64,000 nucleotides of DNA, from positions 5,573 to 69,572 of the forward strand of contig LNDU01000029.1 in the NCBI GenBank assembly GCA_001464735.1, given 5' to 3'. The translations under genes and the position numbers were made by a program. The notes beneath the pieces are model-generated. The model saw only the letters and a program-made list of their open reading frames with translations, was not told where the DNA came from and ran no database searches. Numbering within the stretch: position 1 is the first letter of the stretch; each line of letters starts with the position of its first letter. This document shows, piece after piece, positions 42,829 to 61,853 of this stretch. The stretch comes from Nitrospira sp. Ga0074138 (lineage in GTDB: Bacteria; Nitrospirota; Nitrospiria; Nitrospirales; Nitrospiraceae).

Positions 42829-42909
42829 GGGGAAGCCCCCGGATGGCCGTCGGCTTCCCCGTGAAGAAACTCAGCGCCTCAGGGTTTGAGCGACCATCCA
42901 TTGCTTCAC
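42829..42909 (-). repeat. Relic of the repeated module: 3' end of the gene plus hairpin
   Basis: GGGGAAGCC...GGCTTCCCC hairpin followed by sequence reading VKQWMVAQTLRR* on the minus strand, matching AKEWMTAHTLKR* at 54925. Confidence 0.7.
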
Positions 42910-42959
42910 AAGCATCCGACCTCTTTACTTCTGCCTAGTGCCGCGTTGATACCTTATGC

Positions 42960-43449
42960 TTAGCTCGTCGATAGGTTCCCACAGAGACCAGGGCCATCGT
43001 CATCAATCTCACAGATAAATTTATCGTACTGGATTTGCCAGTCAAGTCGTACTTGTGAGGATTTCTCTGAATGTTGGATGGCATTGGCAATAAGCTCCTT
43101 AAAGATCGTAAATAAAGCTGGATTGGGATAGATCAGATCGAGCGACTGCGCAGTGCCTTCCGCTACACGGATTTGCCGTCTCTGGATAGCACTTCCGAAT
43201 CTCATCGAGTACTTGCATGGGCTTCGTAACAAACGGGTCACCAGCTGGCCATCCATACCCGCGATATTCCATCCCCATGCGCATCATGCTCTCGACACGG
43301 TCAAGGATAGTGGGAATGCTGGCTATCCAGCTTGTCACATGCTGGGCATGGTCAGGACTGTCGGCATGCCGAGTGACAGCTTCCGTCAACGCACGAATTG
43401 AGACGAGAGTGGAGAAAAGCTCATGCCCGAACCCGCCAAACGCACGCAC
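42960..43449 (-). pseudogene. Histidine kinase fragment (HisKA plus partial HATPase), frameshifted
   Basis: GHELFSTLVSIRAL in one frame; IFKELIANAIQHS...IDDDGPG in another. Confidence 0.6.
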
Positions 43450-44179
43450 TGATTGCGATTCGAAACAGCGTTCGGAGCTGTTTCTCGGACAACTGAACTT
43501 GATCTACGGATCTGGAGGATCTCATATAGGAACCGCTGCTGAACAATGGATCAACTTATACCGCATCCTCCATAGCTCCTAGAGAACTGGATTTTTTCAT
43601 CACCTTCCGCCTTGCTTCTTCTCTCATTCTCGAGAGTGGGACCCGCCACAAAAGCCTACCCACGCTATGAAGAGGTTGGCCAGATTCCTCACTCACACCA
43701 CCTACCAGAAGGATGGCTGCGCCCTACCAGTGTGGTGTTGGATCTTGTGACTGTTTGGGCAAGATGGACGCGTGAGGTATCGGGGTATTCGTAAGCCCTC
43801 CCAGTGGAAGGGGCGGATCGTTGATGTTCATAAAATCGCAACAAGGTACTCATCACACGGGGTCCAAAGGTGGCCCGAGCCACCCCGGTCGAAGTGGGAT
43901 CGGTATCGTCTTGGTGCTGTGCGCATTGTGGCTGATCTTGGCGCTACTAGGCTGCTCCTCAGTACGGGAGTCCGTATAGCTATCCTGCACGGGACGAAGC
44001 CCACGCCCGCACGATGGCCTAGAGTATGGAATGTCTGCGATAACCAAGCACTGGGGGCGGATGAAAACAAGGATGGAGGCCCATATCTACCCCTTCGGGG
44101 GGCTCATTAGAGATATGCGGCTTAGTCCAGCGAAGGGGGCGAGGGTAAGTCTCCGGGCTTCACTTTCGAGGCCTACGGG

Positions 44180-44827
44180 TCAGGCCGCTTCCGGTCTTGG
44201 GGCTGAACCACGGGATACGGCTGGTATCAGGCAGTTTCTCGGTCTTTTTGTCGAACCCCTTGAAGCCTCTGCCTTTGCGCTTCGCGACGAGACGGGGCTT
44301 GGAGTGCTGTGTCGGTATACTCCAAGTATATCAATCGGGAAATACCCGCCGAGGGGTGGAGAAAGCAGGGTCTTGGCAAGATTCGTCAAGGCTTCGTGTC
44401 TGGCCCGTACCGCTCGCTGAAACGCCCCGTGTTCACCGTACCGCTTAATCGAGAATTTCTTCATTCTCGCCTTACCGCCTCCGATCGGCCATTGTGCCAA
44501 CCAGTACCGCCGGGACCAGATCCGACCCTGTGACGTTTCAACGGCCTCGATTCTGGTGACCCTTGACACGCCGGAACGGTTGTTTGTCTTTCTTTTTGTG
44601 CAGAGTTCTTGCCGTGTCAACGGTCGCAGGGAGGCTAATAGAGTGTCGCGGTACACCTTGGCCGCAGTGAGGGCCTTGCGCTTCCAGCCATGGACTAAGT
44701 CTGCAAAGTGCTGATGGTAGATCCGGCCTCGTCGTTGGACGGTCACCACCCAAGCGTGTGTTCGAGACTTCGCGCTGTCAATGCGATAGATGTGCATGAT
44801 GGCCACAGGCTCCACGCCAGAGATCAC
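44180..44827 (-). CDS. AP2-domain DNA-binding protein
   Basis: AWVVTVQRRG...F...ALTAAKVYRD, NNRSGVSRV, and WLAQW...KKFSIKRYGEHGAFQRAVRAR. The start may be 44797. Confidence 0.7.
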   Translation of the reverse strand: MISGVEPVAIMHIYRIDSAKSRTHAWVVTVQRRGRIYHQHFADLVHGWKRKALTAAKVYRDTLLASLRPLTRQELCTKRKTNNRSGVSRVTRIEAVETSQGRIWSRRYWLAQWPIGGGKARMKKFSIKRYGEHGAFQRAVRARHEALTNLAKTLLSPPLGGYFPIDILGVYRHSTPSPVSSRSAKAEASRGSTKRPRNCLIPAVSRGSAPRPEAA

Positions 44828-44848
44828 GTCTCTTCCGCTGCAAGAACC

Positions 44849-45127
44849 TTACGGAAAAATTCTCTCTTCGACGGTGATGTCCCAATACTTCGACACTTGA
44901 ATGCGCTTGCCGGGATTCTGAAGGATCTTCTTAATCGCTTTCGCGTCTATGAATCGCCGCAACTCCTCACAAGACATCTGATCGGCGAAGAACTCCTCGT
45001 GCACAACCAGGAGCCAAGACAGCTTGTGATCGTCAGTGTGAAAGGTAAATGTCGGTCTGATCTTCTGATCGAACTTCACGTCTCTGAATTGCGTTTCGAG
45101 ACATGCCTGTATGGTCTGCACTTTCAT
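44849..45127 (-). CDS. Hypothetical protein
   Basis: Compact ORF in line with its neighbours. Confidence 0.5.
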   Translation of the reverse strand: MKVQTIQACLETQFRDVKFDQKIRPTFTFHTDDHKLSWLLVVHEEFFADQMSCEELRRFIDAKAIKKILQNPGKRIQVSKYWDITVEERIFP

Positions 45128-45247
45128 CGGATCAATTCCACCTGGACGACTGTTCATACCTATCTCCTTCCTGTTCCATACGTCATCTGTGAGGCTGGCC
45201 CGGGCAGAGTCGGTTTGCGGCCTCCACCACCAGCGTTGAGGGCTCGG

Positions 45248-45610
45248 CTAGTGCAGCAACTCGTATTGAACCGCGGTGAGTAAAGCAGGAAGATCCAGGG
45301 GTTTCGCAAAGGTCTGCCGAGCCCCCATGAGTCTGGCTTTCTGGAGTTCGTCTGCGGAGTGGCCGCTCATGGCGATGACCTTCACATTCAAAAACGCCCG
45401 GGTCAATTCCAACAGGACTTCCAGGCCGTTCATCTCCGGCATCTCCAGATCCGTGATGACCAGATCCACGGGCTGCGCGTGGAATCGCTCGAGGCCCTGC
45501 CGGCCATTGGGAGCCTCGCAGACCTGATACCCGGCCTCTGTCAGCACCTGGGCCAGCAGCATGCGTATGGACGCATGATCCTCAATGATCAGGATGGTGG
45601 CTACCCTCAT
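45248..45610 (-). CDS. Stand-alone response regulator receiver
   Basis: ILIIEDH, DLVITDLEMPEMNG, VIAMSG and KPLD. Confidence 0.85.
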   Translation of the reverse strand: MRVATILIIEDHASIRMLLAQVLTEAGYQVCEAPNGRQGLERFHAQPVDLVITDLEMPEMNGLEVLLELTRAFLNVKVIAMSGHSADELQKARLMGARQTFAKPLDLPALLTAVQYELLH

Positions 45611-45654
45611 CGCCTTGCCCCTTCTCACAGTAGAAGAACGCGTTGCCAGCCTCG

Positions 45655-45900
45655 TTAGGCGGCAAGCGGCTCACCTGACTCTGATTCCCATGGCAATTCA
45701 ACGGTCTCCTCAACCGTCGCGGCGTGGGGACTGACCGCGATCGGCCTCGCTTGGAGCTGACGATGGCACTGCAGAACCGCATCATCTCGATGGCCACAAT
45801 TGACGCATCGCCACGACCGGCTCCACATTTCGCCATAGCCCCCTGCCATATCGATCATCTGTTCCTCCAGCATCAACCCCTTACAGCGTGTACAGCTCAT
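45655..45900 (-). CDS. Small CxxC...CxxC zinc-ribbon-like protein
   Basis: MSCTRCKGLM...WRCVNCG. Confidence 0.65.
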   Translation of the reverse strand: MSCTRCKGLMLEEQMIDMAGGYGEMWSRSWRCVNCGHRDDAVLQCHRQLQARPIAVSPHAATVEETVELPWESESGEPLAA

Positions 45901-46179
45901 CGCAGCTCTCCCTCTGGTGATTAGTGATGGCGTCGCGTCTGAGATCAACCGTATCAGGGATGGCAGTTCAGGCTAGATGCGAACGAGGTACATCGGAAGG
46001 GGGGGTACCTAGAGTGAGGAACGAGGGATGAAATCCAGAGTCAACCTCTGGCCTGAACTAGTGGGGATTATACCGGTCTACATCCTATGTTTATCCCCAG
46101 TATGGAATCCCCTTAGGCTTTGCTAGGGTTCGAGGAGATATTACAGAGCTTGAAAGAAGCCAGACTTTTCTTTAGACGC

Positions 46180-46672
46180 AAAGGAGGACGCGACTGGGAA
46201 GGCGATACCATCGTGGGGGCTCACCACAAGGGGGCGCTGCTCACCCATGTCGAGCGCAAAAGCCTGTTTACCACCATCTCGAAACTGCCCCGTTCGACGG
46301 CGACGGCGGCTCACGCGCCACGGTGCGTCGGCTGACGCCACTGCGCGACCACGTCCATACGATCACCTACGACAACGGCAAAGAGTTTGCCAGGCACCGA
46401 CACACTGCGCACCACCTGCAGGCTCACATCTTCTTTGCCAGGCCTTATCACGCGTGGGAACGCGGGGTGAATGAGAACACAAATGGCCTGATTCGAGACT
46501 TCTTCTCAAAGGGGACGGACTTCACTACAATTCACCCGGCGACGGTGGCCAAAGTTGAACGTCTGCTCAACCGTTGGCCCAGAAAATCGCTCGGCTTTCA
46601 AACGCCCAACGAGGTCTTTCACGCGCTGGCCAGAGGCGGCTGAACGTTGTGCACTGGAGAGTTGAATCTGCG
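46180..46672 (+). mobile_element. IS30-family transposase 3' remnant with probable right end
   Basis: DWEGDTIVG, TITYDNGKEFA and PYHAWERGVNENTNGLIR..F.KGTDF (DDE motif); frameshift near 46316; TGCACTGGAGAGTTGAATC end-like sequence after the stop. Confidence 0.85.
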
Positions 46673-46677: not shown

Positions 46678-47271
46678 TTAACTGCGGACTAAGAAGTCGA
46701 TGGGTTTGAAAGTGCCGTTGTTGGAGCCTTCAGCAGAGCAGGCGGTTAAGCCGCATACCATATCCATCTCAGCTCGGAGTGCGATGTGGTCCCCGGCCTT
46801 CGACTTAGGCACACCGACCGTCAGCATCCCCTGCGGGTCAACCGTGACGTTCATGAATATGTTGAACGTCGTTGAGATATCGGCGGCCGAGATGCCGTGC
46901 TCCTTCAGGGACAGAAAGAGGTTCTCAAAACAGCTCGGATGATGACCCTTGTGTTTGTAAAGGATCTCAAACATCTCTTGGCTGCACGGCGTCAGGAGGA
47001 AATCATGCAGGCCGACGGTATCCTCAATAATGGTGAACATGGGTTTGCTGTTGTTCGCATAGAGAATGTTGTTCGTCGTCAGGTAGATTCCGCTCGCATA
47101 GTCTAGGGAACGCCCTGATGACAGCCGGCAATTAGGATCGTGCTCATCGACTGCAAATAGATCAGCTACCTGTTCGCCAAGAGGATCAACTACCTGCAGG
47201 ATCTGTTTCCGTTTGATTTTGAATGAGCGACCATTCTGTGGCGGAATGCGGATCATCTGTGAGTAAGTCAT
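46678..47271 (-). CDS. DUF1989 / urea carboxylase-associated family protein
   Basis: VDPLGEQVADL, HDFLLTPCS, HPSCFENL, FNIFMNV and LTACSA..SN. Confidence 0.85.
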   Translation of the reverse strand: MTYSQMIRIPPQNGRSFKIKRKQILQVVDPLGEQVADLFAVDEHDPNCRLSSGRSLDYASGIYLTTNNILYANNSKPMFTIIEDTVGLHDFLLTPCSQEMFEILYKHKGHHPSCFENLFLSLKEHGISAADISTTFNIFMNVTVDPQGMLTVGVPKSKAGDHIALRAEMDMVCGLTACSAEGSNNGTFKPIDFLVRS

Positions 47272-48104
47272 CTTGTGTCATTCTTTCGTGGGTGGAAGGG
47301 GCACGTCCAATTAGCCGGGACGGCGCGTCCGGAATACTGACGTGCCTCCGAGTTTTCACCAAAGGCCTCCAGCATCGGGTTGATTGATCCCTGGAATGTC
47401 TTATCCCGGACTCGGATTGTCTGCTTCATGGTTTCAAATTTTCCGCGCGCGCGCAGGCGGTCAAACTGCTCGTGTAAGTTGAACACCATCGTGGGATACG
47501 GGCGGGTTCGAGCCTGCCGCGAGGCTTTAGGGTGCATGCCGATAACATACATCGCTCGCCCACCTATGCTGAACGAAAACCGATGGCTCCTAGGATCGGA
47601 GTCAACACTCTTGTCCCAAGAAAAGAAATTGGAATCAAGGGAGTGCATGGCCTGAAGTTGATTCCACAGGAGGTCTTCGAAATGCTGTTCTGACTGAATT
47701 GCCGGTCCATGGAACATTGCGATGAAGGTAATGAAATGGTCATCGATGCCTGGGAATTCATGGCAAAATTCGTACAGATCATGACACACGGCACGTACGG
47801 CACTGTCACCGGATAGCTCCGGGTATAAGCCGAAACGATAACTCTTTTGGCTGAATGCCGAGATCGCGCCTGTGCACGGGAAAAACTGGCCCAAGATCTG
47901 ATGTCTTAGCTGGCCATGCGCATCAGTGAGCTCTCTGTCGACGGTACGTGTAGGCGATCTGATGATTTTGTCATCCGTGAATGCCGCATAGCTTGAAAAT
48001 TTCTGGGCCACCGGATCGGCTGACAAAGGGTTCCACAGGCGATTATTGCTGCTGTCGGTTATGTGGTTTTCAGTGGACGGCATGTGAGGGAAATCTGGTT
48101 GCAT
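47268..48104 (-). CDS. YqcI/YcgG family protein (GntA/DcsA-like guanidino N-hydroxylase family)
   Basis: FFPCTGA, FEDLLWNQLQAMH, FSFSIGGRAMYVIGMHP.ASRQAR, VFNLHEQF and SEARQYSG; GGAG RBS; 4-bp overlap with the DUF1989 gene. Confidence 0.8.
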   Translation of the reverse strand: MQPDFPHMPSTENHITDSSNNRLWNPLSADPVAQKFSSYAAFTDDKIIRSPTRTVDRELTDAHGQLRHQILGQFFPCTGAISAFSQKSYRFGLYPELSGDSAVRAVCHDLYEFCHEFPGIDDHFITFIAMFHGPAIQSEQHFEDLLWNQLQAMHSLDSNFFSWDKSVDSDPRSHRFSFSIGGRAMYVIGMHPKASRQARTRPYPTMVFNLHEQFDRLRARGKFETMKQTIRVRDKTFQGSINPMLEAFGENSEARQYSGRAVPANWTCPFHPRKNDTR

Positions 48105-49178
48105 GGTGAAACTCCGTTGATATCTTGAGTCAAGCAGCAACTGCTCACTGATACCAGGATAGGCATCCTCCGTCCCGCGATTGTTTTCTAAGGGATTGTT
48201 CCGCTTCCGAACACGGCCCTGGTGACCAATCCTGTATGTCGGGTCCAAGTTGTATATGCCGGGAGTTGTCCCTCTGCAAAGACTTGTCAGCCTGCGAGTA
48301 GACTACTTGCACGTACCTAGGTTTTTGCCTGCCTCACAGGTGACTAGCTTCCGACACTCTAGGCGTAACGGCAATAGTGCGTTGGGTTAGGGGAGCCATG
48401 CTTTGGTATGCCGAAGTTATACGTGTCAACGGTACACACCCACATGATTAATTGAAGAAATTGTCCGGGACGACGGAGTCGCGGGGGGGCGGCAATCCGG
48501 AGGAATACTTTCTCAGGCTTCCCGTGCCGTTCCCTAACGGCAGAGAACACGGGAAAACAGCCAGCCAAGACCGTGGGTATTTGGGTATTATGGTTCTACT
48601 AGACGACTATGAGCGGTAAGAAGCAGGGCAGATGGTCTAACTATGAAAAGCTGTTTCAATCGCTGATGGTTGATTCGAATGAGGAATAGAGATGTTGTAG
48701 AAAACGACTTCCGTCATTATTTAACATTGGCAACCCACATCCTGTTGCAGCAGGTAATGTCCTCTCCTGAAGTGTAGCGCATCAATCCAACCGGTCTGGG
48801 GAAATCCCTCACGGGGCTATTATCCTTTTCTCATGAGTTCTCACTCCACGTGCAACACGAGCGGCATGCCAGGGCTGAGGTATTGCATTGCAAAAGAGAG
48901 CCTATCGACACATGGGTGTAGACGAACGAGGAATCTTGAGTCTGGGGCTGGCAAGGGTCAAACATTGCTGACGCTGGCATTGGTATTGGGACGACCCCCA
49001 GCACCATGAGCTGTGAAACAGGCCCGGAACACAAAGCCTATGCGAGGCCTCCATCTTTTGGTGGATATATATTGTGGTCGCTATACATTATAAAAAAATC
49101 GTTCAAGTTATATACACGCCCCCCAACTTGTCTGTGTGCCCAGTGCAAAAACTCTATGTGGAGGCTAATGGTAGCACG

Positions 49179-50129
49179 ATGGAACACATTGCCCAACCAA
49201 CAAGGACAACAGCCCTTCGAGACAAGTTGCGAGACACCTGGTTGCAGGATCTCGTCATCCACTATCGGGCCATTAAACGCCGGGTGATGCGACGGTCCGA
49301 AGGCGAGACCTTTCTGTTGCGCCGATATGCACGGATCCACGGCAAATCTCTTAACCTAACAAATCCTCAGACCTTTACGGAGAAGCTGTTCTGGCGCATG
49401 GTGACCTGGAATCGGGGAGACATGCCCTCACGGTTTCGGGAGCTGGCTGATAAGTATGCGGTGCGGGGCCATGTCGCGAGCAGAGTGGGCGAGGAATACT
49501 TAGTCAAGCTCTTATGGCACGGGGACGATCCGCGTGCGATTCCGTTTGACCGGTTGCCAGCAGAGTATGTGATCAAGCCCAGCCATGCGGCGGGGCAAGT
49601 GATCATCGTCAGAAATGAGGCGGATCGTGAAGATATCATCCGTCAAGTGTCGGGGTGGTTGGCCAGCAACTATTATTGGCATGGACGCGAAGCACAATAC
49701 TACGGGATTCCACCTCGGATTCTGATCGAGGAATGCCTGACCAATGAAGATGGAAGTCCGCCGCTCGACTATAAATTCTACTGTTTTAACGGCATGCCTG
49801 ATCAGATTATTGTGCGCAATCATACGCACGACATTCATCCAATTTTCGACACGACATGGAATCTACTTGACCTTGTCGTTTCAAAATGCACAGTACGGTC
49901 GCTGGTGCCAAAGCCGGATAATCTGAAGGAGATGCTTGCGCTCGCCGCGAGGCTGTCGGACGGGTTCGGATTCGTCCGCGTCGACTTATACAACGTCCAG
50001 GGGCGAGTCTATTTTGGTGAGCTGACTTTTACTCCTGCGGCGGGGATAATAAAATATACTCCTGAAAGTTGGGATTTGAAGCATGGGCAGAAATGGGATC
50101 TGTCCTTAGACGTGAAAGCTAGAACGTGA
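49179..50129 (+). CDS. TupA-like ATP-grasp protein
   Basis: PQTFTEKL, ADKYAVR, YVIKPSHAAG, DYKFYCFNG and RVDLY...YFGELTFTP. Start uncertain (the ORF opens at 49074). Confidence 0.8.
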   Translation: MEHIAQPTRTTALRDKLRDTWLQDLVIHYRAIKRRVMRRSEGETFLLRRYARIHGKSLNLTNPQTFTEKLFWRMVTWNRGDMPSRFRELADKYAVRGHVASRVGEEYLVKLLWHGDDPRAIPFDRLPAEYVIKPSHAAGQVIIVRNEADREDIIRQVSGWLASNYYWHGREAQYYGIPPRILIEECLTNEDGSPPLDYKFYCFNGMPDQIIVRNHTHDIHPIFDTTWNLLDLVVSKCTVRSLVPKPDNLKEMLALAARLSDGFGFVRVDLYNVQGRVYFGELTFTPAAGIIKYTPESWDLKHGQKWDLSLDVKART

Positions 50130-50189: not shown

Positions 50190-50648
50190 ATGAGGCAAGG
50201 AGAGATCCTCAACCTGCAGTGGCAGGATGTGGATTTCATACGCGGGACGCTCATCGTGATGAAGAGCAAGAACGGCACACGCCGCACGATTCCATTGAAC
50301 AGCACGGTGTTTGCGTTGCTCGCCGCCAAGCAAGCTGCGACAGGCGCATCATCCGGGCCGGTGTTCAAAAGTCCGCTGGGTAATACCCTTCAAGTGCGGT
50401 TCTTGGTGCGAGAGTTTTGTGAGGCAAGGGATCGGGCCGGGATTCCCGATTTCCGTTTTCACGACATACGGCACACGTTTGCCACGCGACTCGTGCAACG
50501 TGGGATCGATTTGTACAAGGTCCAACGTCTCCTCGGTCACAAGACCGGGACTATGACACAGCGCTATGCCCATCATTCGCCTGAGAGTTTGAGGGACGGC
50601 GTGAACGTGCTCGATGCTTGCAAACATGCCACATCTGGCATACCATGA
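50190..50648 (+). pseudogene. Tyrosine recombinase catalytic C-terminal fragment
   Basis: GMRQGEILNL.W.DVD, FHDIRHTFATRL, LLGH and RYAH; the N-terminal domains are absent. Confidence 0.8.
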
Positions 50649-50670: not shown

Positions 50671-51009
50671 ATGAAACCGGTTCATTTTGTTGGAACGTCA
50701 CGGGAGGATCTTCGCGAGCTTCCGGAGACGGTGCAGGAAACAGCCGGATTTCAGCTCTTCAAAGTCCAACAAGGCAAAGATCCGGATGATTGGAAGCCGA
50801 TAACGACGGTCGGACCTGGCGTCCAGGAACTCCGGGTTCGGGATGAGAGCGGGGCCTATCGAGTCTTCTATGTAGCGAAGTTCCAAGAAGCGGTCTATGT
50901 GCTCCATGTGTTTGAGAAACGCTCACAGAAAACAGTGAGGACTGATCTCGAGCTCGGCAAGACTCGATATGCCGATCTCCTCAGGTGGAGAAGGGAGAAA
51001 GGGCTATGA
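50671..51009 (+). CDS. RelE/HigB-type (Gp49-like) toxin
   Basis: PDDWKPITTVGPGVQELRV...YRVFYVAKF.EAVYVLHVFEKRSQKT. Confidence 0.85.
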   Translation: MKPVHFVGTSREDLRELPETVQETAGFQLFKVQQGKDPDDWKPITTVGPGVQELRVRDESGAYRVFYVAKFQEAVYVLHVFEKRSQKTVRTDLELGKTRYADLLRWRREKGL

Positions 51010-51383
51010 CACGCGCAACCGTGACGAAAGGGAGTGGAAATATCTTCCGGGATCTGGGGTTTTCGGACGAGCGATCGGCCGAACTCCTTCTCAAATGCAG
51101 TTTACTGCAAGCCCTTCAGGACACGATTCGGCGCCACGCGTGGAAGCAGGTGGAGGCGGCCACGCGCCTCGGGATCGATCAGGCCAAAGTGTCCAAGCTC
51201 CTCTCGGGACAGATCGCCGGGTTCTCGGTTGAACGTTTGGTGCATTTCCTCTCCTTACTAGGCCAAGATGTGGAAGTCACCGTGCGTCAGGCTCCGCGCG
51301 GACAGCGATACGGCACGGTCCGGTCGAAGGTCACGAGACGATCGCGTACGGTCGCGAGAGCTCGGTCGGAGAACGTATCATGA
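51006..51383 (+). CDS. XRE/HigA-type HTH antitoxin
   Basis: GSGNIFRDLG...KQVEAATRLGIDQAKVSKLLSG...FSVERL; ATGA overlap with the toxin. Confidence 0.85.
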   Translation: MTRATVTKGSGNIFRDLGFSDERSAELLLKCSLLQALQDTIRRHAWKQVEAATRLGIDQAKVSKLLSGQIAGFSVERLVHFLSLLGQDVEVTVRQAPRGQRYGTVRSKVTRRSRTVARARSENVS

Positions 51384-51699
51384 TCCACAAGGGTATGCGG
51401 GCGATTCACCCAGGAGAATTCTACTGGAAGAGTTCATGAAGCCGTCAGACCCGCCGATTAATGCCAATACTCTCGCCAAAGCCCTCGAAGTTCCGGCGAA
51501 TCGGATCACGGCCATCATCAAAGGGCAGCATGGCATCACGGGAGATACGGCGGTGAGGTTGGCGACCTTCTTCAATACAACTGCTGAATTCTGGATGAAT
51601 CTCCAGAAGACCTATGAGCTGCGGCTTGCCGAACAAGCATTGCCGGTGAGGGTCAGGAAGCATATCGAGCAACGCAGAGAAGCACTCGCGACTGCCTGA
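51380..51699 (+). pseudogene. higA: HigA addiction-module antidote with a -1 frameshift near its start
   Basis: MIHKGMRAIHPGE in one frame, then ILLEEFMKP...ALEVPANRIT...TAEFWMNLQKTYEL in another (GGAGAATT instead of GGAGAAATT). Confidence 0.75.
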
Positions 51700-51808: not shown

Positions 51809-51820
51809 CAATGAAGCGGC

Positions 51821-52066: not shown

Positions 52067-52075
52067 GCCCTCTTT

Positions 52076-53029: not shown

Positions 53030-53288
53030 AAGGGCCTCCTTGGTTGCTGTCATCGTCGCATGGAACCACCGAATCGTGAACCGGGAAAAACCCTGGAGAG
53101 GCGCAGGCAAGCTTATTTCGTGCGGAGTCGGCTTCACGTCGGAGAAGGCAAAAGTTGAGGAACTCTTCCAGAGAGCAAGGGACGGCAGCCGCTGAGTGAT
53201 AATGTAGACACCGCGCCCGCGCCGTGCCGGTCGGAGGGCACCGTCGCTTACGCTTCAGAGCTTCCGCGACCCTGCCGAAGCTTCTGTT

Positions 53289-53400
53289 CATGTCCTAGGG
53301 GTTTTGCCAGTACCGGCTCGACATATAACGCGATAACTTGCAAACAGGATAGGGCAGCGGAAACGCTACCAGGAACGATATATAAAAATTGCACTGTTCG
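53289..53400. repeat. Module relic B: upstream region plus start codon (ATG AAC AGA) without the gene body
   Basis: Duplicate of 52064-52203. Confidence 0.75.
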
Positions 53401-53837: not shown

Positions 53838-54437
53838 TTAGGTATCCCACATTCTCTGTCGTGCCTCACTGACCAGATGGTTGGCCTGGGCTTGAACCGT
53901 CTGCATGCTGCCTTCTACGACGGTGAGCGATTGTTTGCACATCACTCGGTCGTTCGGTCTGATACCACTCCACCTTTGCGACTTCCTATGAGGGGGGCTC
54001 CTCCGAAGTTGATCGCGAAAATTTGTCGCCCATTTCATGCGGTCTTCGAGAGAAGCACGCAATCGGTACAGCGCCAACAGGCCTTCAACAATACTGATGA
54101 TTTTCGAGGTCGTCGTGGTTCCGTGAAGAAAACCCAGGGCGCCATGTTCTATGGCTTGCCGCACGTCAGCTACCTCCTTTCGCTCTGTCGTGACAATAAA
54201 GGGCGAGCAAGGATGGTAAAGCCGATTGAGACGGAGCAAGGAATAGCCATCGAGTGACGCAATGCGCTGAGGACAGATGACGACGTGGTAGGAGTTCAAA
54301 CGAATAGACTTCACGGCTTCTTTCAACGAAGAACAGCTATCCACCATAGCGGCTGGAAGGCATCGCTGGATTATCGCGCAGAGCGCCGGAGCAGGTTCAA
54401 TGAGCAGGATTGAGGATGACGGGGCGCAAACAGGCAT
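53838..54437 (-). CDS. Atypical receiver-domain protein
   Basis: ILLIEPAP...YHVVICP...PFIVTT...GALGFL, a REC-like fold lacking the canonical Asp residues. Confidence 0.55.
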   Translation of the reverse strand: MPVCAPSSSILLIEPAPALCAIIQRCLPAAMVDSCSSLKEAVKSIRLNSYHVVICPQRIASLDGYSLLRLNRLYHPCSPFIVTTERKEVADVRQAIEHGALGFLHGTTTTSKIISIVEGLLALYRLRASLEDRMKWATNFRDQLRRSPPHRKSQRWSGIRPNDRVMCKQSLTVVEGSMQTVQAQANHLVSEARQRMWDT

Positions 54438-54832: not shown

Positions 54833-54924
54833 TGCGCTTCCTCATCACCCGACACCCACAATCGGAAGCACGAGAGTCGGGGAGAGAAGCCCCCGGAGGG
54901 CCGGAGGCTTCCCATAGGAACCGC

Positions 54925-55170
54925 TCAGCGCTTCAGTGTGTGAGCGGTCATCCACTCCTTCGCTTCAAACGCGACATTCATGAGCGCCTCCAGGTCGTTG
55001 AGACCGAATGAAGTGCCATTGCGCCAGGAACCGGTCTGATCCTTGAACGGCCGTGAAAAGGTCGTCGCGAAGAACGGTCCTTTCCCGCTCACATTCTGCC
55101 AGATCGTCGCTTTGATGTTCCCACATCGCAGCGTCGTTGCCGGTCGCTTGGATTGTTGGTTGGTCGCCAT
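54925..55170 (-). CDS. 81-aa putative ssDNA-binding protein, copy C
   Basis: MATNQQSKRPATTLRCGNIKATIWQN...; AGGAGG RBS; downstream hairpin at 54884-54913. Confidence 0.7.
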   Translation of the reverse strand: MATNQQSKRPATTLRCGNIKATIWQNVSGKGPFFATTFSRPFKDQTGSWRNGTSFGLNDLEALMNVAFEAKEWMTAHTLKR

Positions 55171-55371
55171 GGTGTTTCCTCCTTGTGTTGAACTGTAGGT
55201 GACTCTCTCACGGGAGGAGGAGAGGCACCGCACAGGTCACGGAGGAAACAGGAGGCAGAGGCCGGAACCGGCGGGCCGGAGAGGGACACGCAGCGGGAGT
55301 GACAGAACACTGGCGCGAGCGAGGCGCCTCGAAGGTGTAAGCCGGTCGGCCATCGCCGCTGGCGACCAGAA
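55021..55371. repeat. ~350-bp direct repeat (partner at 61179-61528) flanking the S8 protease gene
   Basis: Gene 5' half plus about 200 bp of upstream sequence align between the two sites up to GGCGACCAGAA. Confidence 0.9.
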
Positions 55372-55530
55372 ACAGCCGAAGTCCGAAAAAAGGAGTGGGG
55401 TCAAATAAACTTCGGGGCAGATCTTGTTTGGTACATCACAAACGTTGAGCTGTCCGTCCGATACAGATTGCCTTACCGAGTATGCCGCGTATGACTACCA
55501 CGGAGTGACATACTACACGGTAATTGCTGT

Positions 55531-58500
55531 TCACCGCGCTCTGGCGTCACGCTGTGCAGCAGTAAGCACCTGCACGAGCGCCGGAATATCAGAACGCCTG
55601 ACTGTGGACGGATCTCGCGATATCAGCTGTACGACCTCGCTCAAGCCCGCTTGCTTGACCTCGGTCGTCAGGTACTGACCTACAGAGTCGTCCTGCAGCG
55701 CTTGAATGAGCGCGATGCGCGCTGCGCCAGTCGGGTCGCCGCTACCTGTCAGTGTATTCAAAGCGTGCTCCATCTGCTCAGCCCGACGTTGCGAAGCTCC
55801 TCCGGACTCGATCACCCGAAACTGCGCACCGTCCGACGCCAGACCCCACCCTTCCGTTCCTTGCACCAGAACATCGTAGACGCCGGACTCCAGGCCGCGA
55901 GGCACAACAATGTCGACCGTACAGCTACGCCGATCCGTTCTCGTAACTTGGGCCTGTTTGAGTATACCGTTTCTCGCAAGCGCGACACCTCTGATATCCC
56001 CGCTGACGAGTGCGCAGTCACCTAACTGCAAAGTCGTGCGGGTTGTCTGGGTAGCGGTTCCCGATCCAACGGTGATCTGGACGACAGGCGGCACATCGAG
56101 TGCAATGGTCTGTCGTGGAAACACCACACTAAACGCCGTGACCTGAATTGTGGCGCTCGTACGTCCGGGATCAGCCCGGAACGTCTGTATGTAGCTGCCA
56201 TTGAGCTGGTCTTCGAGCACCCCGCCCGGAGTCAGTCCAGAAACCTGCACGCTGATCTGATCGGTCAAGCCCGGCCCCATATATCCGCCGGATTGATCGC
56301 GTGGCGTGAATACAAGCCTGATACCTCGTCCTCCGCCCGTCATGACCCGAATTGGTGTTGTCCGTTCATCGACCTTGGGCGGAACGTAAGCGGATGTGAC
56401 GGATTCCCTCGTGAAGAGATCACAATCCTCGGTGGTACCTTCTGTCCGGGCGGTCAATACATAATGCCCTGGGAACCGAGTTGACGGGAATATGCCGGCA
56501 TACGTTCCCAGCACCGTGGTTTCCGGAATCGCAACTCCAGGGAATGTCACCCTGGCAATCGGATCCTTATTCAATCGGCGCGTGAGTGCCATGGTCATGC
56601 GTTGTACTTGCGAGATCGGCTCGCCCGCGACCGTAGCGGGAGTCGCGTTGATTTCAGACTGCGTGATGCCGGCTGACGCCAGGACGTTGCCAAGGCTCGC
56701 GATGGGTGCATCCACTTTCGCGATCACGTTGGCACCACTGATCGGCCCGCTGGCCCCTCGTACCTGTGTCCGTACCCGGATGGGTTCGCCGAGATCGAAG
56801 ATGCCATCGGCAGATGGCTCGATAGTCGTGGCTTCAAGAATCTCGGATTCCGTGATGGCCGTCGCAGCAAAACGGATCGGAACCCCTGTCGGATTTTTGA
56901 CCCGCATCGTCCATTTGCCTGCATGCAGCTGATTGGCGCCGACGCGCAGGGGCAGGCTCACCTGGATGACCGTATAAGCTGGAGCACTGATCCGTGTAAT
57001 CGCGTCGCCAAACTGGCCGAGGTTACCATTGTGCAAGACCACCCCTTCAGGTGAGATCAGTTCTAGTGTGGGATCGAATGCCGGATTATCCCAGGTAAGA
57101 ACGAATGTGACGGTCCGGTCCGGTCCAGAGACATTGATGGGAACCTCTCTGACCTGCGAAGGAGGAACAGTATCAACAGGATCAACAATCACTTCGGCAC
57201 TAATCGCATTGGCGAGCGCATTCACAAAGAACTTGTCCAGCTCGAGTGGGGATTGTGTGACATGGAAAAATCCCTGCGCTCCCACATTGCTGAGCGCTTG
57301 CAAGAGTCCAATATCGAGACCCGACAGCCCTTCGCCTCCTTCGGTCCCAAAACCGACCGAGAAGACCTTAACGTTCTCGTTGTTGAAGCGCTGTAGAAAC
57401 GAAGCTTCAGAAGGGTTTCCACCGGCCGTCCTCATGCCATCGGAGAAAAACAGCACGACTTTCCGTCTATCCGTGCTCGTCGGAATGAGATCAAGCGCTC
57501 GTTCCAACGCAGCGCGGATATTAGTGCTTCCGTTGGCCGTCATGGCCCCAACTGCTGCTTTGGCACCAGCAATGTCGCCCGCACCGAAGGACTTCACGGA
57601 ACCCGATCCATCGCTGAAGTCGGTCGACGCAGATCCCGCGAAGCTGACCTCGCCGAGGCGGTCCCCTGCGTCGCGACGGAGCATGTCGATGAAGAGGTTG
57701 GCCGAAACCTGAAGCATTTGGAGCTTCGTCTGCGTGCCTGCGGTCACGGGTACCGACGCACTCATGCTCCCGCTCCGATCCATCACCATGACCACGTCTA
57801 TAATCCGTCCCACCTGAATAGCGAGGAGATTGACGTCGTTGTGTTCGAGCACCGCGTCGCCACTATCGGCGCGAACGAGCAGAAAGACGTCCTCCGAAAT
57901 GAGATCATCGATGGTCGCTGAGGGATTCCCCAGCAGCGCCTGAGCGTCCGCCGCGGAAATGGTCACGGTGCTGGTCCGCGTGGCTTCGGCACCGCCCGCC
58001 AGTGGGGCGAAGGCAGCGGCAGTCGTATCTGTCAATGCGACGTCATTGCCGAGTGCAAAGTCGCGCGAGAGAAACACCTGGTGAGTGAAACCCACGCCGG
58101 TGTCAACACTGCTGGTGTTCGCCACCTTCCAGTTGAACGTGATCGGTGTGCCGAACGCCGCCATTGCCACCCGATCCTGACTTGAAGGCACGAGCTCTGG
58201 CAGCGCGGGATACGGGAAGCCGACCAGGGCGAAGGATTGAGCATTTTCGCGCACGTTGAATCCGATGACGCGTGCCTTCCAGTGCCCGAACTGCGTCGGA
58301 TCATTGGGGAGGTTCACGAACACCTGTTCCACATTATTCAGGTGATCCTTCCCTGTCGCCGCAACCCAGACACCGCCCGCCGCCACCGCGTTCTGCGGAA
58401 CGTAGTCGATCGAGACCGGTCCGACTGCTTGCGGTACCGTTGGACATCCCGGAGGAGCCGTCCCTTGCGCACAGACGTACTGCCAGGTAAATGATGGGTT

Positions 58501-61038
58501 GGTGATCGGCGCAATCGAGGCCTGGACTTGAATCGCCGTGCCAGGCGGCTGGGCATTGTCCGCCAGCGGATTACCAGCCGCATCTAGTGTTGTGTGCCCG
58601 AGCCTCCAGGGATAGAAGATCGTTCCATTCGGTGCGACGAGTTCGAGATCGAGATCATTCACCAGCATCGGGCTCGTCGCCGGATTGAGCGTCGTCGCTT
58701 CAAAGTCATCCCATGCGAGGGTGACGGTGAGTGGGCCGCCCTGATTCACGACAAAGTCATATTCTCTGACAATCCCCTGGGAAATCGAACCTTGAATCAT
58801 CTGGTTCGCCTGCGCACGACCGGAGACCGTGCGGGCGTTCGTGAGCATAGCCGCCGCCGCATTGATGTTGGCGGTCCCCCACCCGGTGGCGTAGTCGGGA
58901 CCTGCCGTGGCGGCAACTTGCCCGAGACCATCGGTGCCGTTGGCCTGATTGGAATCTCCATCCATCTCCGGGCTGTTCACGCCCCGAACGTTCGCCTGCT
59001 GCACATCTGTGGCGGTCTGGATTAACAGCGCCCGTAACAGCGCCGGCAGCGGCGGGTTGGCGTCGAGGGTGGCTCCAATCGGAGCATTGTAGGTGTTTTG
59101 CCACAGCTCAAGCAGCTGAGCGACGCCACCCGTAATCGACGGCGTGGCCATCGACGTCCCGTTGCACGATACGTAGCCGTTCGTGAGATTGGTGCCATTC
59201 GCCACGCACGAACCGTCCCCGTTGGAGCCCGTGGAAATGATACTCGTGCCCAGCGCCAGGAGATCCGGTTTGATACGTCCGTCATAGGCGGGCCCAAGGC
59301 TGCTGCCTGGCGCGAGTGCCACCGCGGCAGCCCCAGCGAGGGAACTTTGATTGCCGACCACGAGGGTATTCTTGTTCTGCTTGGTGAGGGCAAAGTAGCC
59401 TGTTTGGCCGGCGATCGTGGTGGTGGAATTGAGGGTGCCGCCATTGGCTGGCCGCTGGTTGTTCGGAAGTTGGCCGTGATTGCCTGCCGACGCGACCAGC
59501 AGTCGTGGCGGAACCACGGTTCCCCCGCTCGTCGCGCCGCCGCGTATTAAGCTGTCGATGCGGCTATTTTCGGCGTCATAGTCGCCATCGAACGACCACG
59601 ACTGTGAGCGGTTGGCAACATCTAAGGAGTTCGCTTGAATCGCCGTCAGCATGTTCCCGACGTTGTCGAGGTCACCAGACGAAATCAGTCCAGCCTGTGG
59701 CGCTGATCCTCGCCATTGAAAGGCTGTGCCGCCATTGGCCGTGCCGGCCGCGTTGGTGCCATTGCTCAGGCCACCGCTTCCTGCGATCGTGCCGGCGACA
59801 TGCGTACCGTGGCTTCCGACTCCCGCTGCCGCAATCGTGGCAGCCACAGTGAGGTCGGGATGGGCGGCAATGCCTGTGTCATGCACGCCGACGGTGATGC
59901 CCAAGCCCGACGCGCCACCATAGGTAATGGTGTTCATGTTGATGGTTGCATTTTGCAACGCGTTGGAATTGATGACGGCCCGGCTGTTGTCGTTATCCGG
60001 CATCGCCGGCGCTGGGCCAGGATCAATGGACTCCACTTCGTCATAGGCGGCTAAGGTGCGCAGGCGGCTTTCTGGAAGCGTGACCCGGCGCTGCACGTCG
60101 CTGAGGTGATCGAACGACGTGGCTTCGGCGGCTAGAATCGCTTGGATACGGGCCATACTGACATCGGCAAAAAACGTCACCGTTAGGTTCAGCGCTCCCG
60201 GACTCTGGACCACCATGTTCGTGACGACATCGAGCGGCGAGGAGACGGTGTACCGTGCGTAATTTCCAACCAGAATGTTTGGCTCGATCTTATCCTCTGG
60301 GTCCAACGGAATGACGCTGGACACTAACGCGCTCGTCGCCGGATTGAATCGGCGTTCGATCCGGGCCAGGGCGTGGCGTCCAGGGAGATGTTTCAAGAGC
60401 TTGAGCCCTTCGCGCTCAAGTTGCACATTTTCCTTGCAATTGCAGGCCTTGTTGAGCGTGACAATCCCATGCAGCTGTCCCGATGGTGCCGCAGTCAGTC
60501 GTGAAAGCAGGTCAAACTGGAGCGAAGCTGAAGGCCACAGAGCGCCAGAGCGCATGGCGAGTCGCTCTCTGCGGAATAACTCGTCGCGCGCGTCATTGAC
60601 GGGAGTCGTGATCTCAAGAAGGCCTCGGGCATCTTGACTGGCAGGGTCGCGCAGGACAACCCGCCATGAAACCCCCCGCGCCAGATCATCAGGCGACACA
60701 TCGTAGGTCAGTTGCAACGGCGAAGAGCCGGTGACGTGCGCATATGGTGCAACAGGATCAGAAAGTAAGAGCCGTCTGCGCCCTTGCAACTCCATGTGGA
60801 GTTGCGAACTCGAACCGGTCCATGTAGCGACCACCACGATCTTTCCAGTGGCCGACACATTGAACTGTGTGAACGCGACGGACTGCGAGCCTGATACCCA
60901 GAAATTGTTGGACGTGGTGACGGGCTGAGTGGGCACGACTGGAAGCAAGGGCGGCGCCGTGCTACCCGGAGTCAGCGGCGCGCAGGAAGACAGTACAACG
61001 ACAAGGAATGACATGGATAAGAGCCGAAGCCAGTTCAT
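55531..61038 (-). CDS. 1835-aa lipoprotein S8 (subtilisin-like) protease with a vWA domain
   Basis: Lipobox VVLSSC; triad VHDTG / SHGTHVAG / GTSMATP; DRSGS MIDAS and FSDG vWA motifs; GGAGGTGG RBS. Confidence 0.88.
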   Translation of the reverse strand: MNWLRLLSMSFLVVVLSSCAPLTPGSTAPPLLPVVPTQPVTTSNNFWVSGSQSVAFTQFNVSATGKIVVVATWTGSSSQLHMELQGRRRLLLSDPVAPYAHVTGSSPLQLTYDVSPDDLARGVSWRVVLRDPASQDARGLLEITTPVNDARDELFRRERLAMRSGALWPSASLQFDLLSRLTAAPSGQLHGIVTLNKACNCKENVQLEREGLKLLKHLPGRHALARIERRFNPATSALVSSVIPLDPEDKIEPNILVGNYARYTVSSPLDVVTNMVVQSPGALNLTVTFFADVSMARIQAILAAEATSFDHLSDVQRRVTLPESRLRTLAAYDEVESIDPGPAPAMPDNDNSRAVINSNALQNATINMNTITYGGASGLGITVGVHDTGIAAHPDLTVAATIAAAGVGSHGTHVAGTIAGSGGLSNGTNAAGTANGGTAFQWRGSAPQAGLISSGDLDNVGNMLTAIQANSLDVANRSQSWSFDGDYDAENSRIDSLIRGGATSGGTVVPPRLLVASAGNHGQLPNNQRPANGGTLNSTTTIAGQTGYFALTKQNKNTLVVGNQSSLAGAAAVALAPGSSLGPAYDGRIKPDLLALGTSIISTGSNGDGSCVANGTNLTNGYVSCNGTSMATPSITGGVAQLLELWQNTYNAPIGATLDANPPLPALLRALLIQTATDVQQANVRGVNSPEMDGDSNQANGTDGLGQVAATAGPDYATGWGTANINAAAAMLTNARTVSGRAQANQMIQGSISQGIVREYDFVVNQGGPLTVTLAWDDFEATTLNPATSPMLVNDLDLELVAPNGTIFYPWRLGHTTLDAAGNPLADNAQPPGTAIQVQASIAPITNPSFTWQYVCAQGTAPPGCPTVPQAVGPVSIDYVPQNAVAAGGVWVAATGKDHLNNVEQVFVNLPNDPTQFGHWKARVIGFNVRENAQSFALVGFPYPALPELVPSSQDRVAMAAFGTPITFNWKVANTSSVDTGVGFTHQVFLSRDFALGNDVALTDTTAAAFAPLAGGAEATRTSTVTISAADAQALLGNPSATIDDLISEDVFLLVRADSGDAVLEHNDVNLLAIQVGRIIDVVMVMDRSGSMSASVPVTAGTQTKLQMLQVSANLFIDMLRRDAGDRLGEVSFAGSASTDFSDGSGSVKSFGAGDIAGAKAAVGAMTANGSTNIRAALERALDLIPTSTDRRKVVLFFSDGMRTAGGNPSEASFLQRFNNENVKVFSVGFGTEGGEGLSGLDIGLLQALSNVGAQGFFHVTQSPLELDKFFVNALANAISAEVIVDPVDTVPPSQVREVPINVSGPDRTVTFVLTWDNPAFDPTLELISPEGVVLHNGNLGQFGDAITRISAPAYTVIQVSLPLRVGANQLHAGKWTMRVKNPTGVPIRFAATAITESEILEATTIEPSADGIFDLGEPIRVRTQVRGASGPISGANVIAKVDAPIASLGNVLASAGITQSEINATPATVAGEPISQVQRMTMALTRRLNKDPIARVTFPGVAIPETTVLGTYAGIFPSTRFPGHYVLTARTEGTTEDCDLFTRESVTSAYVPPKVDERTTPIRVMTGGGRGIRLVFTPRDQSGGYMGPGLTDQISVQVSGLTPGGVLEDQLNGSYIQTFRADPGRTSATIQVTAFSVVFPRQTIALDVPPVVQITVGSGTATQTTRTTLQLGDCALVSGDIRGVALARNGILKQAQVTRTDRRSCTVDIVVPRGLESGVYDVLVQGTEGWGLASDGAQFRVIESGGASQRRAEQMEHALNTLTGSGDPTGAARIALIQALQDDSVGQYLTTEVKQAGLSEVVQLISRDPSTVRRSDIPALVQVLTAAQRDARAR

Positions 61039-61144
61039 GTCCACCTCCGTTATGGCCGCCTTACTAACACAGCCATCAGGGGTGGTCAATCATAATTCTA
61101 AGTTGATTTACTTACTTAAGTATTAATCATCCTGGAACGCGTAG

Positions 61145-61173
61145 CGGTTCATCCCCACTCGTGCGGGGAACAC
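61145..61173 (-). CRISPR. Solitary type I-E CRISPR repeat (no array, no cas genes in the window)
   Basis: Minus strand GTGTTCCCCGCACGAGTGGGGATGAACCG, 29 bp, matching the canonical I-E pattern GTGTTCCCCGC-n-GCGGGGATAAACCG, with stem CCCCGC-ACGA-GTGGGG. No second repeat about 32 bp away on either side. Confidence 0.8.
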
Positions 61174-61328
61174 CCGGTGCGCCATTCACCGGACTGATCC
61201 TTGAATGGCCGCGAAAAGGTCGTGGCGAAGAACGGTCCGTTCTCGCTGACATTCTGCCAGATCGTCGCCTTGATGTTGCCACATCGCAGCGTGGTCGCCG
61301 GTCGTTTGGATGAGTGGTTGGTCGCCAT
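61149..61328 (-). pseudogene. Copy D of the 81-aa gene, truncated by the CRISPR repeat
   Basis: MATNHSSKRPATTLRCGNIKATIW...FKDQSGEWR|TGCSPHEWG*; the stop lies inside the repeat. Confidence 0.8.
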
Positions 61329-61528
61329 GGTATTTCCTCCTTATGTGAAGTGAAGGTGACTCTCTCACGGAGGAAAGAGAGTCACCGTACAGTTCACAGA
61401 GGAAACAGGAGGCAGAGGCCGGAACCGGCGGACCAAAGAGGGATAAGCAGCGGGAGTGACAGTCCTACTGGCGCCAGCGGTGCGCCTCGCAGGCGTAAGC
61501 CGGTCGGCCCTGCCGGAGGCGACCAGAA
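61179..61528. repeat. Direct repeat partner of 55021-55371, including the hairpin GGTGACTCTCT-N10-AGAGAGTCACC (61355-61386)
   Basis: Direct sequence comparison. Confidence 0.9.
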
Positions 61529-61766
61529 CTATTAAACGAGACAGGGAGGCGTATGAGAGGCCTCGCCTTAAAAGTTCGAAAGAAGGGGTTTTGACAAGTG
61601 CTCGCTATTGCAACGGTTTCCCCATTATCTGCTGCAATATTGAGAGGTTAGTGCCTTCCATTGATTCCATGCGTTCCCGTCTCTTTCCTTCCTTTCCTGC
61701 AGGGTTTTGTCACAAAATTCACCACAGGGTTAGTACGTATAAAAGGTGAGGGAGTGGGTTGGTGTT

Positions 61767-61853
61767 ATGGTTTTCACCGCTCTCTTCAACGCCGCGGCTG
61801 AATTCTGGATAAATCTGAAAAAGACGTATGAACTACGCCTTGCCAACAATTGA
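61767..61853 (+). pseudogene. HigA C-terminal remnant
   Basis: LFNAAAEFWINLKKTYELRLA matches FFNTTAEFWMNLQKTYELRLA of the HigA at 51380-51699. Confidence 0.7.

Follow-up and report, generated by a model that had tools for sequence, protein, structure and literature searches.

The window analysed here is a stretch of 64,000 nt from Nitrospira sp. Ga0074138 (assembly GCA_001464735.1, contig LNDU01000029.1, positions 5,573 to 69,572 of the forward strand), in which copies of a small module, made up of a leader, an 81-aa gene and a hairpin, punctuate unrelated cargo genes. With a probability of about 0.7, the part at 42829–61853 is the inner section of an eroded composite island that is anchored at a tRNA gene and arose by tandem accretion of integrase-driven elements, the module being a constrained backbone unit of these elements and not the recombination site of a dedicated capture system. 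In the proposed course of events, elements that belong to a mobilome specific to Nitrospira and are moved by tyrosine integrases would insert successively at the tRNA, always in the same direction and each carrying its own module (a structured leader of ~200 nt, the 81-aa gene and a GC-rich hairpin), and pieces without an integrase may be mobilised in trans. The pile would then be worn down by deletion, insertion sequence (IS) insertion and illegitimate recombination, which toxin–antitoxin (TA) pairs, being addictive, would survive. Directional integration would leave co-oriented copies, and ordinary recombination between directly repeated modules and attachment (att) cores would delete, insert or swap the cargo between them, producing the cassette-like look and the differences between strains. 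The type of island is itself known and no new gene-capture machinery is claimed; the novelty lies in an abundant backbone module that doubles as a recombination substrate.

Positions given below are those of the window unless prefixed with C29, which denotes the contig of the window; the genome is referred to as G000, and module coordinates count from window position 55380 as position 1. The original prediction, drawn from the DNA letters, had listed five copies of the module on the minus strand, and all five (A to E) were recovered by a repeat finder, BLAST and nhmmer:

42828–42910, minus strand: relic A, module positions 417–499, that is the last 37 nt of the coding sequence (CDS) and the hairpin at 42832–42858 (nhmmer; repeat family D3).
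51776–52241, minus strand: intact module B, with a type-1 leader, the 81-aa CDS at 51821–52063 and the hairpin at 51782–51808.
53283–53400, minus strand: relic C, a type-1 leader alone (repeat family D6).
54883–55373, minus strand: intact module D, with a type-2 leader at 55171–55373, the CDS at 54925–55170 and the hairpin at 54886–54912.
61174–61530, minus strand: truncated module E, with a type-2 leader and codons 1–51 (module positions 8–362).
C29:72421–72575 (window-equivalent 66849–67003), co-oriented with the array: copy F, module positions ~345–499, ~3 kb beyond the window end.

A full module of ~490 nt spans position 7/8 to 496–500 and comprises the leader (8–210), the 81-aa CDS (211–456) and, past the stop codon, a near-perfect hairpin with an 11-bp GC-rich stem (469–495). 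The copies share 71–88% pairwise identity over 76–490 nt, with BLAST E values of 1e-8 to 1e-115, well outside chance. The claim of one recurring unit thus holds for the shared module, whereas the leaders fall into two types, one on B and C and the other common to D and E, and the sixth copy F had lain out of view. In the whole genome, 10 protein-level matches and several leader-only relics are spread over eight contigs, and the 3′ part of module B with its downstream flank is duplicated beside a tRNA-Met on contig C60. The upstream edge of copy B's type-1 leader carries a hairpin with a 14-bp stem, GAAGCTCCGTCCTTGAAAAAGGGCGGGGCTTT (52206–52237), which has T-runs on both sides and ends similar to the GAAGC...GCTTC motif in the hairpin of the module.

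The array had been described as a 19-kb island at 42829–61853. The array is real, but the island continues past 61853 and extends over ~31 kb, from 42883 to a tRNA-His at ~74076, between conserved core genes. Two features define its right side:

C29:79650–79726: tRNA-His(GTG), between pyrF and the gene of the 545-aa integrase.
C29:77972–79609: intact 545-aa integrase with DUF6538 and Phage_integrase domains, directly after the tRNA-His.

Contig C29 is syntenic on both sides with contig C17 of Nitrospira sp. YTPLAS72 (G015); synteny ends at ~40900 and resumes at window-equivalent 74348 with pyrF, rpsT, holA and lptE, and in both genomes the tRNA-His(GTG) stands at the pyrF edge and bounds the island. 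The gap between the left flank and the tRNA-His amounts to 2.4 kb in G023, 6.9 kb in G004, 17.7–21.8 kb in G019, G005, G009 and G010, 28.2 kb in G015 and 33.2 kb in G000, and the cargo at the locus (7–28 kb) differs among the other Nitrospira. The closest relative, G023 (89–95% identity), is nearly empty at this site: its homology stops at 42882, within relic A, and resumes at the 3′ end of the tRNA-His, with 396 nt in place of ~31 kb that hold an antisense integrase remnant followed by the same hairpin remnant as in relic A. These breaks of homology set the island proper at 42883 to ~74075, and the comparison points to relic A as its ancestral, oldest, tRNA-distal edge. A distal relic and an intact integrase next to the tRNA form the layout expected if newcomers insert at the tRNA and displace older layers outward. 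The layer with the 545-aa integrase looks like the youngest and is possibly still mobile; in this region beyond the window (C29:77972–79726 and L027:7363–8811), the integrase is followed by a TIR-TPR protein (482 aa), a 362-aa protein and a 657-aa GDSL lipase. ARAGORN found no tRNA within the window, since the anchoring tRNA lies beyond its end, and an Rfam scan of 40–64 kb at E ≤ 1 returned no match. The base composition of the island is not distinct from that of the flanks.

The remains of more than one integration event lie in the island, namely the 545-aa integrase, an unrelated integrase stub of a tRNA-Lys type and a 14-nt remnant of an att core. The stub had already been noticed as that of a tyrosine recombinase, and the Pfam match agrees with this. 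The features concerned are as follows:

50190–50648, plus strand: C-terminal stub of a tyrosine integrase, ~143 aa (Pfam Phage_integrase, 6.6e-30).
50671–51699, plus strand: TA-type trio of Gp49 (HigB-like), HTH_37 and HTH_3 (Pfam), adjoining module B.
61561–61574, minus strand: att-like motif CTTTTAAGGCGAGG, 44 nt upstream of leader E and identical to nt 1–14 of the 45-nt tRNA-Lys core described below.

The stub is 87–92% identical to full-length integrases of 360–377 aa in G015:C3, G009:C36, G005 and G010:C19. In G015, G009 and G010, the full-length orthologues lie ~80 nt from a complete tRNA-Lys(UUU) and converge with it, and in G009 an HTH_17 excisionase-like gene comes next after the integrase. 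Judged by these orthologues, the stub is a fragment of a tRNA-Lys-specific integrase that would mark the tRNA-proximal end of a former element. The islands of G009 (16 kb) and G010 (31 kb) are bounded by the tRNA-Lys at one end and by a 45-nt direct repeat of it (tRNA-Lys positions 32–76) at the other, and the three islands with this integrase (G015, G009 and G010) have the integrase region and modules in common and nothing else. The 45-nt core recurs, with its extent constant at 32–76 and in the orientation of the modules, within the arrays of loci L011, L014, L020 (the tRNA-His island of G015), L022, L024 and L025, and a 27-nt piece of it was found near a leader relic on contig C28 of G000. 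In G003:C2 the array begins ~15 nt past a full tRNA-Lys, and the arrays of G003:C134 and G000:C60 follow a tRNA-Met.

The motif CTTTTAAGGCGAGG has its sole exact copy in the genome at this place, within a conserved "arm" that reaches to ~61760 and aligns with arm-plus-core repeats of L011; the motif precedes modules at the same distance in G015:C17, G003:C2 and L040. The Gp49/HTH_37/HTH_3 trio abuts the 45-nt core in G015 (85% identity) and the integrase stub in the window (junction at ~50617), which indicates an ancestral order, on the module strand, of module, trio, core and integrase of the next element. The trio probably marks the tRNA-distal end of the element carrying module B.

The orientation and descent of the copies are consistent with successive arrival. 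In every contig with at least two protein-level copies, all of them are on one strand, and the arrays are co-oriented with a tRNA-His, tRNA-Lys or tRNA-Met in all seven cases examined. Random orientation combined with static cargo, the pattern that the original prediction had set against itself, was not what the contigs displayed, as the copies of each share one strand and the cargo varies. In a maximum-likelihood tree, 18 long copies form a star without clusters by genome (5 label changes, compared with a mean of 4.6 for shuffled labels), indicating that the copies were acquired separately; local tandem duplication as their source was ruled out by this tree. Among the intact copies, the ratio of nonsynonymous to synonymous divergence (dN/dS) is 0.12 at a synonymous divergence (dS) of 0.65, and the leader diverges by 0.158 per site, so that selection acts on the protein and, since the leader changes more slowly than synonymous sites, on the leader as well. 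Of the two explanations originally offered, "stacked debris of one family of integrative elements" is therefore the one upheld by the tRNA anchor, the intact integrase, the stub of a second family, the att remnant, the nearly empty relative and the co-oriented, independent copies. Accretion of integrative conjugative elements (ICEs) and cis-mobilisable elements (CIMEs) is reportedly treated in a review of integrative mobilisable elements (IMEs).

The closest parallel is formed by the ssrA-specific islands of Dehalococcoides, which are tandem, bounded by the gene or direct repeats of its 3′ end, variable between strains and furnished with a recurring conserved module; many of their layers lack an integrase of their own, and their recombinases are serine recombinases (PMC3146451). 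Tandem layers at one small-RNA gene, strain-variable cargo, a recurring module and many integrase-less layers are the points of likeness. The Nitrospira island differs in that its integrases are tyrosine recombinases, that one island combines specificities for at least two tRNAs (His and Lys), that the recurring unit consists of one 81-aa gene behind a long conserved leader instead of a cluster of integration genes, and that no tRNA-His repeat delimits the layers in this genome.

Variation of the cargo between copies among strains, which had been proposed as a check, was found in L011, L014, L015, L024 and G015. L011 holds at least eight co-oriented copies or relics in 12 kb, with VapBC, HigBA, HepT/MNT, DUF2726 and other genes between them, and its cargo differs from that of sister contigs. 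The difference of 4.2 kb between L011 and L015 is bounded by 195-nt arm-plus-core repeats, each ending in the 45-nt core. In L011, the HepT/MNT unit, which is missing from G015, is bounded by a duplicated piece of ~80 nt in which leader positions ~120–153 are joined to CDS positions 236–279, and the replacement that distinguishes L014 from L011 begins exactly at a module end. Throughout the comparisons of L011 with L015, L014 and L024, the endpoints of insertions and deletions (indels) fall in arm-plus-core repeats, in module fragments or at a module end. A short form of the module, with position 153 joined to 236 and the ribosome-binding site (RBS) and ATG gone, recurs several times within arrays and across genomes.

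Copies E and F bear witness to a similar event within the island itself, in which the following features take part:

55531–61089, minus strand: 1852-aa subtilase-VWA protein (Pfam Peptidase_S8 and VWA), between D and E.
61145–61173, minus strand: solitary repeat GTGTTCCCCGCACGAGTGGGGATGAACCG, like those of type I-E CRISPR, fused to the broken 3′ end of copy E.
61785–61850, plus strand: C-terminal relic (22 aa) of a HigA-like (HTH_3) protein (tblastn 73% identity, E 1e-6; repeat family D5).
62136–63956, minus strand: cargo of the F...E segment, namely a 90-aa open reading frame (ORF) and a 512-aa protein weakly similar to Peptidase_C25.

Copies E and F overlap by 15 nt, and both contain a "GAATGG" variant that is seen nowhere else in the genome or the loci compared. 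The order on the module strand, F, 5.8 kb and E, is a circular permutation of one module, E being the reciprocal half of F. The intact E|F joint is present in seven metagenome contigs, in L044 and L046 at 89% identity, and the same module lineage is followed by different downstream cargo in different genomes. The simplest single event that would explain the two halves is a crossover within the 81-aa gene through which a circle integrated; the circle would have held a module, a uracil-DNA glycosylase (UDG)-like gene, an amidohydrolase gene, a C25-like gene, the gene of the 90-aa ORF, the HigA relic and the arm. The CRISPR-like repeat has no second copy in the 4.1-Mb assembly even when 6 mismatches are allowed, and it appears to have formed the right half of the site at which the F...E segment integrated. 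The 5′ flank of the subtilase, sought in 120 genomes of the genus in the hope of an empty site for this segment, matched only its own genome, and the reconstructed empty target was not found in metagenome contigs.

These observations raise the question of whether the arrays were built mainly by homologous recombination, with the modules serving as portable homology, either for Campbell-type insertion of circles bearing a module fragment or for unequal exchange with DNA arriving from other strains, and the integrases in a minor role. The module-bounded HepT/MNT unit, the replacement starting at a module end, the recurring short form, the permuted halves E and F and the one lineage with differing cargo would all be accounted for in this way, and the outcome would be a recombinase-independent analogue of cassette capture. 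Such an origin leaves the anchoring at tRNA genes, the integrases next to them and the constant 45-nt cores unexplained, and the copies are 15–20% diverged with no sign of homogenisation. Nor do the sharp edges of the module speak for it, since at a dS of 0.65 unconstrained flanks are no longer alignable and purifying selection alone on an old, diverged gene suffices, with no need for a special mechanism; the edges were rejected as a sign of site-specific recombination on the same ground. As the principal source of the arrays, homologous recombination is judged unlikely, and it is more a complement to accretion than an alternative: module copies do recombine, in addition to accretion by integrases.

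A bolder version holds that the leader and the 81-aa protein work as a stand-alone device for establishment or recombination, such as a single-strand promoter or origin combined with a protein that binds or anneals single-stranded DNA (ssDNA), which admits integrase-less circles into resident copies. This is quite improbable; if true, Nitrospira would possess a recombinase-independent, homology-guided counterpart of integrons that assembles arrays rich in TA and defence genes at tRNA hot spots.

Several observations weigh against accretion by integrases at the tRNA. No direct repeat of the tRNA-His of at least 12 nt in the same orientation was found in C29, which leaves the element with the 545-aa integrase and the older layers without definable limits. 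Inside a tRNA-His island, the stub and att remnant of tRNA-Lys type call for a secondary event, such as integration into an att core that an earlier element had carried or recombination through a module. The arrays of G015 and of the L011 type have no remaining integrase, and accretion there would be read from the att cores. The crossover between E and F falls within the 81-aa gene and not at an att site, and several strain indels end in module fragments with 83–85% identity over ~85 nt, which RecA would use poorly unless the events date far back. Decay does not rise or fall steadily with distance from the tRNA, B and D being intact and F, E and C broken, and on C60 one type-1 leader fragment points the opposite way to the neighbouring relic.

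The other explanation originally offered, an "integron without attC", would have a dedicated recombinase use the hairpin or the leader as an analogue of attC or attI and add promoterless cassettes serially. Chromosomal integrons and clusters of attC sites lacking integron integrases (CALINs) are indeed alike in having unrelated cargo between co-oriented repeats, TA pairs and strain-variable content, and the module hairpin retains its pairing through compensatory changes. The arrays studied here differ in the following respects. No IntI (TIGR02249) is encoded: the best match genome-wide reaches 84.5 bits against a cut-off of 265 and lies on another contig, the arrays of G015 and L011 contain no IntI-type gene, and no recombinase stands consistently beside the arrays, which are anchored at tRNA genes with P4/lambda-type integrases. 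By the test of the hairpin, in which the R″/R′ core motifs were not examined, there is no attC-type site, and the repeat is a ~490-nt gene module under purifying selection in place of a 60–140-nt site. The cargo genes occupy both strands and include regulators of their own and multi-gene units, and the indel endpoints include tRNA att cores. The hairpin motif occurs at five places in the genome, each of them the 3′ end of the 81-aa gene or of its relic, and was not found genome-wide apart from that end, which ruled it out as a free-standing recombination site. What survives of the integron analogy is that modules act as recombination endpoints with strain-variable cargo; an integron-like platform as such is very unlikely.

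A non-autonomous transposable unit resembling palindrome-associated transposable elements (PATEs) or miniature inverted-repeat transposable elements (MITEs), with subterminal hairpins, moved in trans by a Y1/HUH or another transposase and inserting by preference into islands in one orientation, is equally hard to credit. Sharp, reproducible limits (7/8 to 496–500), hairpins close to both ends, the strand bias and two Y1_Tnp-like proteins encoded in the genome would fit such a unit. The two Y1 genes reside on other contigs without a link to modules, and neither terminal inverted repeats nor target duplications nor a fixed flanking target was found; no empty site was found for any copy, and some copies have both the upstream arm and the downstream cargo conserved across genomes.

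Integrase-driven accretion thus remains the preferred account, and the 81-aa family indicates what kind of elements took part. At 90% identity, the protein forms at least 1260 clusters, all "hypothetical", none with a Pfam domain and nearly all of the named ones labelled Nitrospira. An exhaustive search gave 1596 representatives at E ≤ 0.001, many of them truncated or fused ORFs, which suggests that breakage of the module is common. Among 41 relatives, the module is confined to the genus of the window, where 15 of 25 genomes have it (0–15 copies each). The metagenome contig L046 (JGI Ga0224505_10002780) carries at 237–9604 four co-oriented modules on 10 kb, with spacings of 3.2, 4.1 and 1.3 kb, so that such arrays are common beyond this genome. 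An 8.8-kb contig labelled Nitrosomonas nitrosa (L040; ENA ERZ795105 NODE_7391) contains the att-like motif of tRNA-Lys twice, along with two modules whose proteins are 90% identical to that of copy D; it represents either a recent transfer between phyla or a mis-binned Nitrospira contig.

The gene neighbourhood of more distant relatives points to conjugative elements. A paralogue with 45–50% identity has the same layout of leader and hairpin at the DNA level and, in Ca. N. inopinata and related assemblies, is flanked by a Gp49/HTH_37 pair and by DUF6908, NikA-like, relaxase, TIR, ArdC and TrbM genes, a context that is that of an ICE. Remote homologues (34–44% identity) are located on conjugative or mobilisable plasmids of planctomycetes, adjoining ParB-like, ArdC, RadC or RepA genes. 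From these two contexts, the gene is assigned to the transfer or establishment neighbourhood of conjugative elements; linkage of the relaxase/ArdC type was not seen for the window copies, whose elements are decayed. On contig C17 of G000 (8222–12736), a type-II paralogue lies 4 kb from a tRNA-Ser(TGA) that is directly adjoined by an integrase-like gene, which suggests a third tRNA-anchored element, probably an ICE of the N. inopinata type.

Neither the 81-aa protein nor ten remote relatives belong to a family in Pfam, NCBIfam or PHROGs, and a PDB sequence-profile search with the protein gave no match. The AlphaFold2 model of the copy D protein (mean predicted local distance difference test score, pLDDT, 88) consists of four strands and, after them, one long helix, a predicted topology like that of the beta-beta-beta-beta-alpha nucleic-acid-binding domains of the PC4/YdbC/Whirly/PUR type. 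A natural tandem two-domain relative (P0252), as expected of a fold that acts as a dimer, also exists; its own prediction reached a pLDDT of 48 and was for this reason not used in a structure search. Kinship with these domains finds no support in a significant structural or sequence-profile match: Foldseek against PDB and BFVD returned nothing significant (PDB E values of 0.1 or worse), with PUR repeats surfacing at E values of 0.4–0.5 and probabilities of 0.1–0.4. A PC4/PUR-like fold is accordingly a guess from a predicted model, and a guess from gene context is that the protein may be a transfer or establishment factor of conjugative elements, possibly one that binds nucleic acids.

The type-2 leader contains two long predicted hairpins (z ~ −4) that fold strongly both as ssDNA and as RNA, and the second (3′) hairpin sequesters the RBS in the predicted fold. 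Of the 50 pairs predicted in an RNAalifold analysis of 12 leaders, 3 covary, the variation being too small for covariation to be judged. A sigma-70 scan of the leaders revealed no pair of −35/−10 hexamers, and the module hairpins, which have no T-run, failed the T-run rule of a terminator scan. To our knowledge, the leader has no sequence similarity to a known Frpo. The leading regions of conjugative plasmids, with establishment genes behind Frpo or single-strand initiation (ssi) promoters, are alike in several respects (PMC11541004): relaxase, ArdC, ParB-like and RadC genes neighbour the relatives of the 81-aa gene, a strongly folding, conserved non-coding region precedes the gene, and the orientation is uniform. 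The module differs in that no sigma-70-type promoter was found in its leader, in that sequestration of the RBS is more like translational control, and in that its copies are found in decayed chromosomal islands and not in a demonstrable leading region.

The remaining cargo of the island comprises the following features:

42960–43449, minus strand: debris of a histidine kinase with HATPase_c in broken frames (Pfam HATPase_c, 1.8e-5, at 42960–43256; 6 stops in the joined frame).
44180–45948, minus strand: AP2-domain protein, 102-aa protein, response regulator and Zn-ribbon protein (Pfam).
46323–46643, plus strand: fragment of a putative transposase, IS30-like as a label only (weak Pfam rve match, E 0.0039, under the gathering score).
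46678–48248, minus strand: DUF1989/UAAP-like gene and YqcI/GntA-like haem N-hydroxylase gene (NCBIfam GntA 1e-80, urea_degr_1 7.7e-34).
49074–50129, plus strand: TupA-like ATP-grasp protein (Pfam ATPgrasp_TupA, 3.2e-41).
52506–53137, minus strand: Cys-rich 71-aa ORF and 139-aa ORF, neither with a Pfam family.
53838–54437, minus strand: 199-aa protein with a response-regulator receiver domain (Pfam Response_reg, 5.1e-10).

A block homologous to the AP2, response-regulator and Zn-ribbon genes (74–80% identity) stands directly behind the intact E/F-type module in L044 and L046, from which it follows that the block in the window (the matching part at 44189–46005) has lost its module, beside the putative transposase fragment. 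The GntA-like and DUF1989/UAAP-like genes overlap by 4 nt and adjoin that same fragment. The 71-aa ORF (52506–52721) contains the motif CAHPRCKCS...CSDEC...CLCKHPGGC and could, by its cysteine pattern, encode a metal-binding peptide. TA genes or fragments had been placed next to three of the copies, and this applies to B (the trio) and E (the HigA relic), while a third such neighbour was not confirmed.

The island shows how accessory genes are gained and lost in Nitrospira, a key genus of nitrifiers that is hard to study genetically. Hot spots at tRNA-His, tRNA-Lys and tRNA-Met gather integrase-driven layers, and the parts that these layers share recombine and reshuffle the cargo. An abundant and unannotated family of small genes, whose leader matches the gene in conservation, marks this mobilome and probably acts in transfer or establishment, offering a handle on mobile DNA in metagenomes of nitrifiers and a tractable target for biochemistry.

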